Virus record (IMG/VR): IMGVR_UViG_2534681763_000008
Source of the DNA: a virus
Lineage: Duplodnaviria > Heunggongvirae > Uroviricota > Caudoviricetes
Reading direction: 5' to 3' (one strand)
Length of the DNA stretch: 14,615 nucleotides
The translations under genes and the position numbers were made by a program. The notes below the pieces were generated by a model that saw only the letters and a list, made by a program, of their open reading frames with translations, was not told the origin of the DNA and made no database searches. Shown one piece after another: positions 13,029-14,615 of the stretch (positions are counted from its first letter, which is position 1; every line of letters begins with the position of its first letter).

Positions 13029-14317
13029 AACCATCCTCCGGAAGTCAGCCAGGGGTTAACATCGTCAGTTACTGTTTTCTTCCGTTTTTGTTTTTTAACA
13101 GGCGTGGATACCGGTTCCGGTGAGGGTGACGGTTCGGTACTGTCCGGGACACACTCCAGCCAGGTTTCCCGGCTCGCCCACTCCGGTGCATCCGGCCAGC
13201 GGATCTTTTCGTATCCATGCAGAATGACCAGAGCCTCGGCATACACCATCAGGTCAAAAGCTTCGTTGGCACCGCGACCCGGCTTACTCCATTTCCCGTC
13301 ACTGCTCCGCTCTTCATACGTCAGTTCGTCGTAAAACCAGCTCCCCAGCCAGTCAGGGAAATGCACATAGCCGGGACCTGGCGAGTCACGCCATAACGCG
13401 TTATTCACCCGGTCTTTCAGGGCATCCGTCTGAAGAAGCCAGAGCGGCACATCACCTGCGGCCTGCGCCCGTCGGCCCGTTCGTCCGGTGTTATCAGGGA
13501 ATGTACGGGTGATCAGTTTTGCGCGCCGGATGCTGCCGCCCTTAAACAGGTAAATACGTTTACCAAGGCCATCACGACGGCAACGACGCCAGAATTTATA
13601 GGCATTATCAGTGACCCCGTCTTCACCGCCGGAGTCCACCGCCATTGCCATCAGTCGCATTTGTTGAGAAGGGTCGGAGGCCAGCGGCCAGCTTTTATGA
13701 AAAACATCCGTCAGCAGGACATCCCAGTCTTCCGGATAGCTGGCCGGATCAATTCGCTGGCTCTCCCCGTCGCTGTCACCGCGCAATGACTGCGTGATGT
13801 TGTAACGATCAATAATCCAGCGTTCGCCACGGCTGCCATAGCCCGTTACCTGAACCACAAAACGGCGATGACGTCCCGCCTGCACATCCACTGTCGCCAC
13901 AAGGAAATTAACGCCATCCGGCACACTGCGGGAAGGAACTGGCTCTGCCCGCTGCTCAAGCAATTCACTTTTTCGTTGCTCCATGCTGGCACGAGGAAGA
14001 TAAGGCAATCCCCAGTCGGTGTTGATAACCGCCCTGAGTGTTTCTTCGCTTCCTGTCGCTTCATACTCCTGTTCTGCAGTCAGTAATTTGTAAACCAGTT
14101 GCGCCCAGGTCTGATACGCAGCAGCTGGCCCTTCCATCCAGAAACTGGCGATACGGGAGCGGCGCGGTTCACCGGAAACGTTGCCGTTACGATCAATGAC
14201 CTGCCCTTCACGCAACCAGACTCCTGCACTATTGAGCTCACGCTTTTTCTCCGCAGTGATAATGCCGCTGCAGTGCGGGCAAAGTAGATACGCCGCCTCA
14301 CTGGCTTTGTAACCGGC
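13025..14317 (-). pseudogene. Terminase large subunit (GpA family), C-terminal part only; 5' part of the gene missing
   Basis: ORF 13025..14215 from a TTG; the same frame stays open upstream to a TGA at 14320..14318 and reads ...AGYKASEAAYLLCPHCSGIITAEKK..., resembling the lambda gpA region around ACPHCGEE. No terminase-like coding in any minus-strand frame above 14320. Confidence 0.7.
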
Positions 14318-14320
14318 TCA

Positions 14321-14615
14321 TTTAAACCGTCTGGTCTGTTTCCTCCGGCTCTACAAAAATAATGTCCATCATTTTTAATGGACACTATCGTATGAAACAC
14401 CGGACCTGGATCACTGAAGCTTTACGTCTTCACTTTGAAGAACATTTACCCCGGGTTGTGGCCGGGCGTCGCCTGGGTGTACCAAAATCAACAGTTTGTA
14501 GTATGTTCGTGCGCTTTCGGAGAGCTGGCCTTTCGTGGCCTTTGCCCGCAGGCATGTCGGAGCAGGAACTTGATGCCTGCCTTTACGGACAATTTTCCAC
14601 GGTACCAGTCGTACG
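14321..14615 (+). mobile_element. Probable insertion sequence (IS21-family-like), left end and start of transposase gene; exact terminus not resolved
   Basis: The terminase frame ends abruptly at about 14318 and a plus-strand transposase-like ORF starts at 14392; 7-bp inverted repeat TGTCCAT / ATGGACA at 14363..14385. Left boundary is somewhere in 14318..14360. Confidence 0.45.
14392..14615 (+). CDS. HTH transposase N-terminus (IstA-like), 3' partial, continues past window end
   Basis: ATG at 14392, open to the window end: MKHRTWITEALRLHFEEHLPRVVAGRRLGVPKSTVCSMFVRFRRAGLSWPLPAGMSEQELDACLYGQFSTVPVV. Helix-turn-helix followed by AGLSWPLP...L(D/E)..L, as I recall for IS21-family IstA N-termini. 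Not in the ORF track because there is no stop in the window. Confidence 0.5.
   Translation, partial: MKHRTWITEALRLHFEEHLPRVVAGRRLGVPKSTVCSMFVRFRRAGLSWPLPAGMSEQELDACLYGQFSTVPVV

Follow-up and report, generated by a model that had tools for sequence, protein, structure and literature searches.

The interrupted terminase gene

The DNA analysed here, referred to as the window, is a 14615-nucleotide stretch of a tailed-phage genome (Caudoviricetes; IMG/VR record IMGVR_UViG_2534681763_000008) that ends in two features on opposite strands, a fragment of a GpA-type large terminase gene and the beginning of an insertion sequence (IS). The terminase frame lies on the minus strand from 13025 to 14308, where it covers codons 273-699 of the gene and has its stop at 13025-13027. 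This 3' fragment has no start codon and is missing most of the ATPase domain. Its GpA_nuclease domain is complete (Pfam PF20454, E=1.2e-86), and RefSeq labels the identical sequence as “terminase gpA endonuclease subunit, missing N-terminus”. Translation of the minus strand between 13025 and 14347 gives ...RRFK(stop)AGYKASEAAYLLCPHCSG..., with the terminase frame unbroken through the CPHC motif; read from 14347 downward, the same strand gives RRKQTRRFK(stop)AGYKASEAAYLLCPHCSGIITAEKK... and is stop-free as far as 13025. The stop that closes the frame (TAA on the minus strand, 14318-14320) lies inside the left end of the IS, into which the frame is read backwards, and both this stop and the three codons AGY preceding it are of IS origin. 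The original prediction of an open frame through the CPHC region followed by a stop is thus confirmed by the translation.

With an intact 699-aa homologue as tblastn query, aa 272-699 map to 14311-13028 and aa 1-271 have no match in any frame of the window, in agreement with the earlier claim that no terminase-like coding lies beyond the junction. The GpA_ATPase domain with its Walker A motif is absent from the polypeptide encoded in the window, and the likeness to intact terminase genes breaks off at 14308. A minus-strand ORF of 106 aa at 14080-14400 was taken as a chance ORF because it is out of frame and spans both the terminase fragment and the end of the IS. A scan of 14200-14615 for promoters and terminators found none.

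The insertion and its target-site duplication

Positions 14309-14615 are the first 307 bp, in plus orientation, of the 2699-bp element ISCro1 (IS66 family). The window ends inside the element, and the remainder of the IS and the terminase 5' fragment were read from other genomes. These 307 bp are 100% identical to positions 8410-8716 of the corresponding locus in Escherichia coli strain 120899, where the whole element, with genes for TnpA, TnpB and an IS66 DDE transposase, occupies 8410-11108. When the empty site of strain ECCHD184 is aligned to the strain 120899 locus, the two aligned blocks share 8 bp and enclose an insert of 2699 bp. The shared octamer is the target-site duplication CTGGCTTT, which flanks the element on either side in strain 120899 (left copy at 14301-14308 of the window, far copy at 11109-11116 of the strain 120899 locus) and is in single copy at the empty site. 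Comparison with an intact homologous locus, the route originally proposed for defining the insertion point, has set the duplication at 14301-14308 and the start of the IS at 14309. The left terminal inverted repeat is GTAACCGGCTCATTTAAACCGT (14309-14330, plus strand). The right end, read as its reverse complement GTAAGCGACTCGTCAGAACCGT, agrees with it imperfectly, at 16 of the first 22 positions. Both ends start with GTAA, which, going by ISfinder descriptions, we take to be how terminal repeats of the IS66 family begin (5'-GTAA).

In strain 120899 the terminase 3' fragment is followed by genes for TnpA (225 aa), TnpB (115 aa) and a 523-aa transposase named in RefSeq “IS66-like element ISCro1 family transposase”, then by the terminase 5' fragment (810 nt) and a DUF1441 gene in the position of the small terminase gene. 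Past 14615, the genome of the window would be expected to reach the right end ...GAGTCGCTTAC, then CTGGCTTT and then terminase codons 272 down to 1. In silico deletion of the IS and one copy of the duplication from the strain 120899 locus gives a 2100-nt ORF, 699 codons long and free of internal stops, the product of which differs from the intact terminase of ECCHD184 at 3 residues. The break falls exactly after codon 272, between ...GYRNEPDPF and KASEAAYLLCPHC... In the intact protein GpA_ATPase covers residues 40-303 and GpA_nuclease residues 325-643, which places the break inside the C-terminal end of the GpA_ATPase match and before GpA_nuclease. The Walker A motif GPARTGKT is at aa 72 of the restored terminase and is carried in strain 120899 by the separate 5' fragment, which as it stands ends ...DPFKAR(stop) after 275 residues. 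These comparisons demonstrate the anatomy of the insertion, the target duplication and the restorable ORF, as the gene content described below demonstrates the family assignment.

Two CPHC motifs occur in the restored terminase, at aa 248 and 282, 34 residues apart, and the IS is inserted between them (window 14200-14308 together with 11117-11260 of the strain 120899 locus). The pair looks like a four-cysteine, zinc-ribbon-like element and is a putative metal site.

Genomes that share the junction

When positions 13900-14615 were compared by megablast with 5,426 complete E. coli genomes, five human enterotoxigenic (ETEC) chromosomes had 100% identity over the whole stretch, those of strains 120899, 103605, 204446, 504237 and ETEC-2265. 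Many genomes with an intact terminase gene match only positions 1-409 of this query, i.e. up to 14308 of the window. In the five ETEC genomes a pseudogene annotated “terminase gpA endonuclease subunit” stands beside “IS66-like element accessory protein TnpA”. The event is already known in that PGAP annotates the identical junction in five RefSeq genomes, and it is an ordinary simple insertion of a known IS. The view that an IS carrying an opposite-strand gene interrupts the terminase is upheld by the 2699-bp insert, the inverted repeats and the target duplication.

It is highly probable that a simple insertion of ISCro1, with an 8-bp duplication, split the large terminase gene in a lambda-like prophage of E. 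coli and displaced the 5' part, and that packaging is defective as a result. On this reading a 2699-bp copy of ISCro1 transposed into the GpA-type gene, exactly after codon 272 of 699, and left its 8-bp target CTGGCTTT in two copies. The window holds the nuclease fragment (aa 273-699) on the minus strand, beside the left end of the IS and the start of tnpA, and the Walker A/ATPase fragment (aa 1-272) lies 2.7 kb away beyond the IS in genomes where the far side is visible.

It is improbable that an IS-mediated deletion or rearrangement in the window's genome removed the terminase 5' half altogether. The far side is out of view, as the window ends inside the IS, and ISCro1-associated rearrangements of the same gene are known (an RHS element on the far side in strain DS26-1; a truncated IS abutting the terminase in PK-F-10132), but all five genomes with the exact junction have a simple insertion with both copies of the duplication. 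Likewise, the window's strain differs from these five genomes (99.4% identity over the whole window), yet its last 8.7 kb are 99.97% identical to strain 120899. With respect to the original suggestion that the ATPase part was displaced or lost, displacement by 2.7 kb past the IS is what the matching genomes have, and loss is not.

No 100% match to the entire window was present among the complete E. coli genomes searched. As many as 83 of the 86 differences from the closest complete genome fall between 250 and 2750 of the window, in tail-tip and minor tail genes, with three in the other 11.9 kb. This cluster suggests a recombinational mosaic patch of the kind typical of lambdoid phages.

Other junctions between ISCro1 and this terminase gene were seen, at least three different ones across strains. 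In strain DS26-1 (L005, NZ_CP035879.1, 4334-7034) the junction is at the equivalent of ~14233, 75 bp further into the 3' fragment, and the far side of ISCro1 is RHS-element sequence and not the terminase 5' half, which indicates an IS-associated rearrangement. A sibling prophage in ETEC strain L5_E1779 (L008, NZ_LR883006.1, 14533-17290) has ISCro1 near the 3' end of the terminase gene in the opposite orientation, with an 84-nt remnant, and strain NCCP 13717 (NZ_CP115984.1) has a two-piece match pattern like that of L5_E1779. In PK-F-10132 (L006, NZ_CM148383.1, 4001-5558) a truncated ISCro1, reduced to tnpA and tnpB, directly links a truncated tail-tip gene with the terminase, again at a different position, and the CTGGCTTT site is uninterrupted. 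The latter arrangement looks like an IS-mediated deletion of head and tail genes.

The plus-strand reading frame and the family of the element

The plus-strand ORF has an ATG at 14392 and an in-frame ATG 30 nt upstream, at 14362, which is the RefSeq start, and remains open to the window edge. It is the 5' part of tnpA (14362-14615), comprising 84 of 225 codons when counted from 14362 and 74 codons when counted from 14392, and it is translated as MKHRTWITEALRLHFEEHLPRVVAGRRLGVPKSTVCSMFVRFRRAGLSWPLPAGMSEQELDACLYGQFSTVPVV. The 84-aa product matches the NCBIfam profile NF038385 (IS66_access_TnpA) with E=5e-27 (residues 13-80 against model positions 1-68), and the ORF is therefore not a chance frame; this supports the part of the original prediction that had it run from 14392 to the edge. 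Along its full 84 aa it is 100% identical to WP_001339397.1. A Pfam search with the 84-aa fragment gave no match at E<=0.01, just generic helix-turn-helix (HTH) hints with E around 0.05-0.2.

In strain 120899, the full 225-aa TnpA scores 295.8 bits against NF038385 (cut-off 150). NF047595, the profile of the short IS66 TnpA, covers residues 102-219 and Pfam HTH_Tnp_1 residues 102-159. The tnpB product matches Pfam TnpB_IS66 (4.7e-40) as well as NCBIfam IS66_TnpB, and the transposase matches DDE_Tnp_IS66 (3.8e-103), zf-IS66, LZ_Tnp_IS66, DDE_Tnp_IS66_C and NF033517 transpos_IS66 (3.6e-143). All five genomes that share the junction, strain 120899 among them, have the order tnpA-tnpB-DDE; the window itself ends inside tnpA. 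The sequence and the genes that follow in these genomes identify the inserted element as ISCro1, a member of the IS66 family; the ORF encodes its accessory protein TnpA and no IstA transposase.

ISCro1 was first named in Citrobacter rodentium ICC168 and is widespread in E. coli chromosomes and plasmids. The name rests here on the RefSeq label and on the published length. An ISCro1 of 2699 bp is published from the IncHI1 plasmid pT28R-1, where its 8-bp target duplication is TAACCTTT (PMC12115866), whereas an “ISCro1” element is given as 2,824 bp in another paper (PMC8764528). The length of 2699 bp, the 8-bp target duplication and the tnpA-tnpB-DDE order all agree with ISCro1, and no difference was detected. 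The target CTGGCTTT at 14301-14308 ends in TTT, as does TAACCTTT (PMC12115866). Across these two sites, the common end may reflect a weak target preference.

The original prediction had taken the ORF to be the N-terminus of an IS21-family IstA, a reading that can now be practically dismissed. It drew on a real resemblance: the 74 aa align with IstA N-termini of IS21 elements, including the AGLSWPLP motif, and eight of the ten longer distant phmmer hits that were scanned match the IS21 transposase profile. However, in genomes of identical sequence the ORF stops at 225 aa with an HTH_Tnp_1/IS66 TnpA module and no rve domain, and the genes downstream are an IS66 tnpB and an IS66 DDE transposase gene, not istB. 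The IS21 transposase profile NF033546 was not among the matches to the window ORF in a scan reporting up to E=1, against 5e-27 for NF038385. The ends begin with GTAA, given above as an IS66 trait, and the target duplication is 8 bp. Of what was to be looked for on the far side, the right repeat, the 8-bp duplication and the terminase 5' part are there in the matching genomes, and istA/istB are not.

An IstA-like helix-turn-helix in the long TnpA

The HTH with AGLSWPLP pointed out originally does reflect homology to the N-terminal ~65 aa of IstA. Beyond that module, protein and element alike are IS66. The miscall is understandable because this N-terminus is homologous to the IstA HTH and the window contains that part alone. 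A tblastn search with the 74 aa against 72,556 plasmids (7.3 Gb) found many IS66 TnpA genes as well as the N-termini of annotated IS21 IstA proteins. The best IstA was that of Bradyrhizobium ISFK1, with 44% identity over residues 7-65 (E=3e-7), containing AGLSWPLPEGMTDEDLELLLF and sharing AGLSWPLP; the ISSso4-like IstA of E. coli has 36% identity. When 1.84 billion representatives were searched exhaustively with phmmer, 495 matched at E<=0.001, and all ten of the longer distant hits scanned align to positions ~5-78 of the profile for the long IS66 TnpA (1e-12 to 1e-17). A word-indexed protein search with the same 74-aa query turned up only near relatives, most of them fragments of IS66 TnpA, and nothing more distant; both searches above were needed to reveal the link to IstA. 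The alignment of TnpA and IstA N-termini is near-gapless across ~65 residues.

In ISCro1 TnpA (8463-9140 of the strain 120899 locus), the GLSWPLP module of ~65 aa, encoded at 14392-14590 of the window, lies upstream of a canonical short IS66 TnpA. The profiles of the short TnpA are limited to residues 102-219 and the N-terminus is IstA-like, so that the long TnpA combines an IstA-like HTH with a canonical IS66 TnpA in one fused protein. The part of tnpA in the window encodes this extra N-terminal HTH, and of the long TnpA it encodes the IstA-like part only. TnpA relatives at 49-57% identity (207-217 aa) likewise have the N-terminal module, and the one relative scanned, P0105, also has the downstream HTH_Tnp_1 match.

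The N-terminal HTH of ~65 aa, with its GLSWPLP...L(E/D)..L(Y/F) signature and 36-44% identity, is common to ISCro1 TnpA and the IstA proteins of ISFK1 and the ISSso4-like element, and IS21 transposase N-termini are matched by the IS66 long-TnpA profile NF038385 at 1e-14 to 1e-17. Unlike IstA, ISCro1 TnpA lacks both the rve catalytic domain and the Mu-transposase C-terminal domain, and istB does not accompany it. The genuine IstA proteins scanned have rve plus Mu-transpos_C_2, and the order istA-istB is seen in the comparison loci L003 and L004. The terminal sequence of ISCro1 presumably also differs from IS21 ends. A PDB sequence search with the full TnpA gave no meaningful match. No paper linking IS66 TnpA to IstA was found in a literature search, which is weak negative evidence.

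Two further ideas are offered tentatively, and we think each somewhat doubtful. The two modules of the long TnpA, a homologue of the end-binding HTH of IstA and a short TnpA, may be the outcome of a domain exchange between IS families, which would suggest a role in end recognition. Separately, the three or more ISCro1 junctions in the terminase gene may stem from a preference for this target or from selection that immobilises the prophage, and not from chance.

Abundance of ISCro1

At least 80% of the ISCro1 element was found in 1,493 of the 5,426 E. coli genomes, in up to 34 places per genome, and copies with 100% identity are common in E. coli genomes and plasmids. Identical 2699-bp copies occupy several other chromosomal and plasmid sites of the ETEC strains that share the junction, so ISCro1 has been active recently. 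Such multi-copy repeats are often misassembled, but a chimeric assembly without a real insertion has next to no probability given that five independently assembled complete genomes have the same junction, that the right junction matches it, and that the 8-bp target duplication is perfect and present just once at the empty site.

Consequences for the terminase and the prophage

Lambda-type terminases require ATPase and nuclease in one polypeptide for cos cleavage and packaging. The gene restored here is of the lambda gpA type, having both domains and lying upstream of the portal, protease/capsid fusion and tail genes in the order of lambda, but split after codon 272 it gives no single product with ATPase and nuclease. 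Because a lambda-type terminase requires both in one polypeptide, the prophage would not package DNA. We infer that neither terminase fragment is functional and that, barring precise excision of the IS, the prophage is defective for DNA cutting, packaging and the production of particles. Otherwise the prophage of strain 120899 seems mostly intact: it has lysis, replication, regulatory, head and tail genes. A minus-strand ORF of 687 aa at 9336-11399 of the window corresponds to a gene labelled [quoted passage not shown] in RefSeq, so protease and capsid protein form one polypeptide in this prophage.

Insertions of IS elements that cripple prophage genes are common, and current understanding is unchanged by this one. 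The HTH module shared by the long TnpA of IS66 and the IstA of IS21 is mildly interesting, as are the ISCro1 junctions elsewhere in the same terminase gene. Because the two families share this module, a short N-terminal motif such as AGLSWPLP does not identify the IS family. The insertion marks a lambda-like prophage as probably packaging-defective, which is useful for the annotation of prophages and for judging their ability to transduce.
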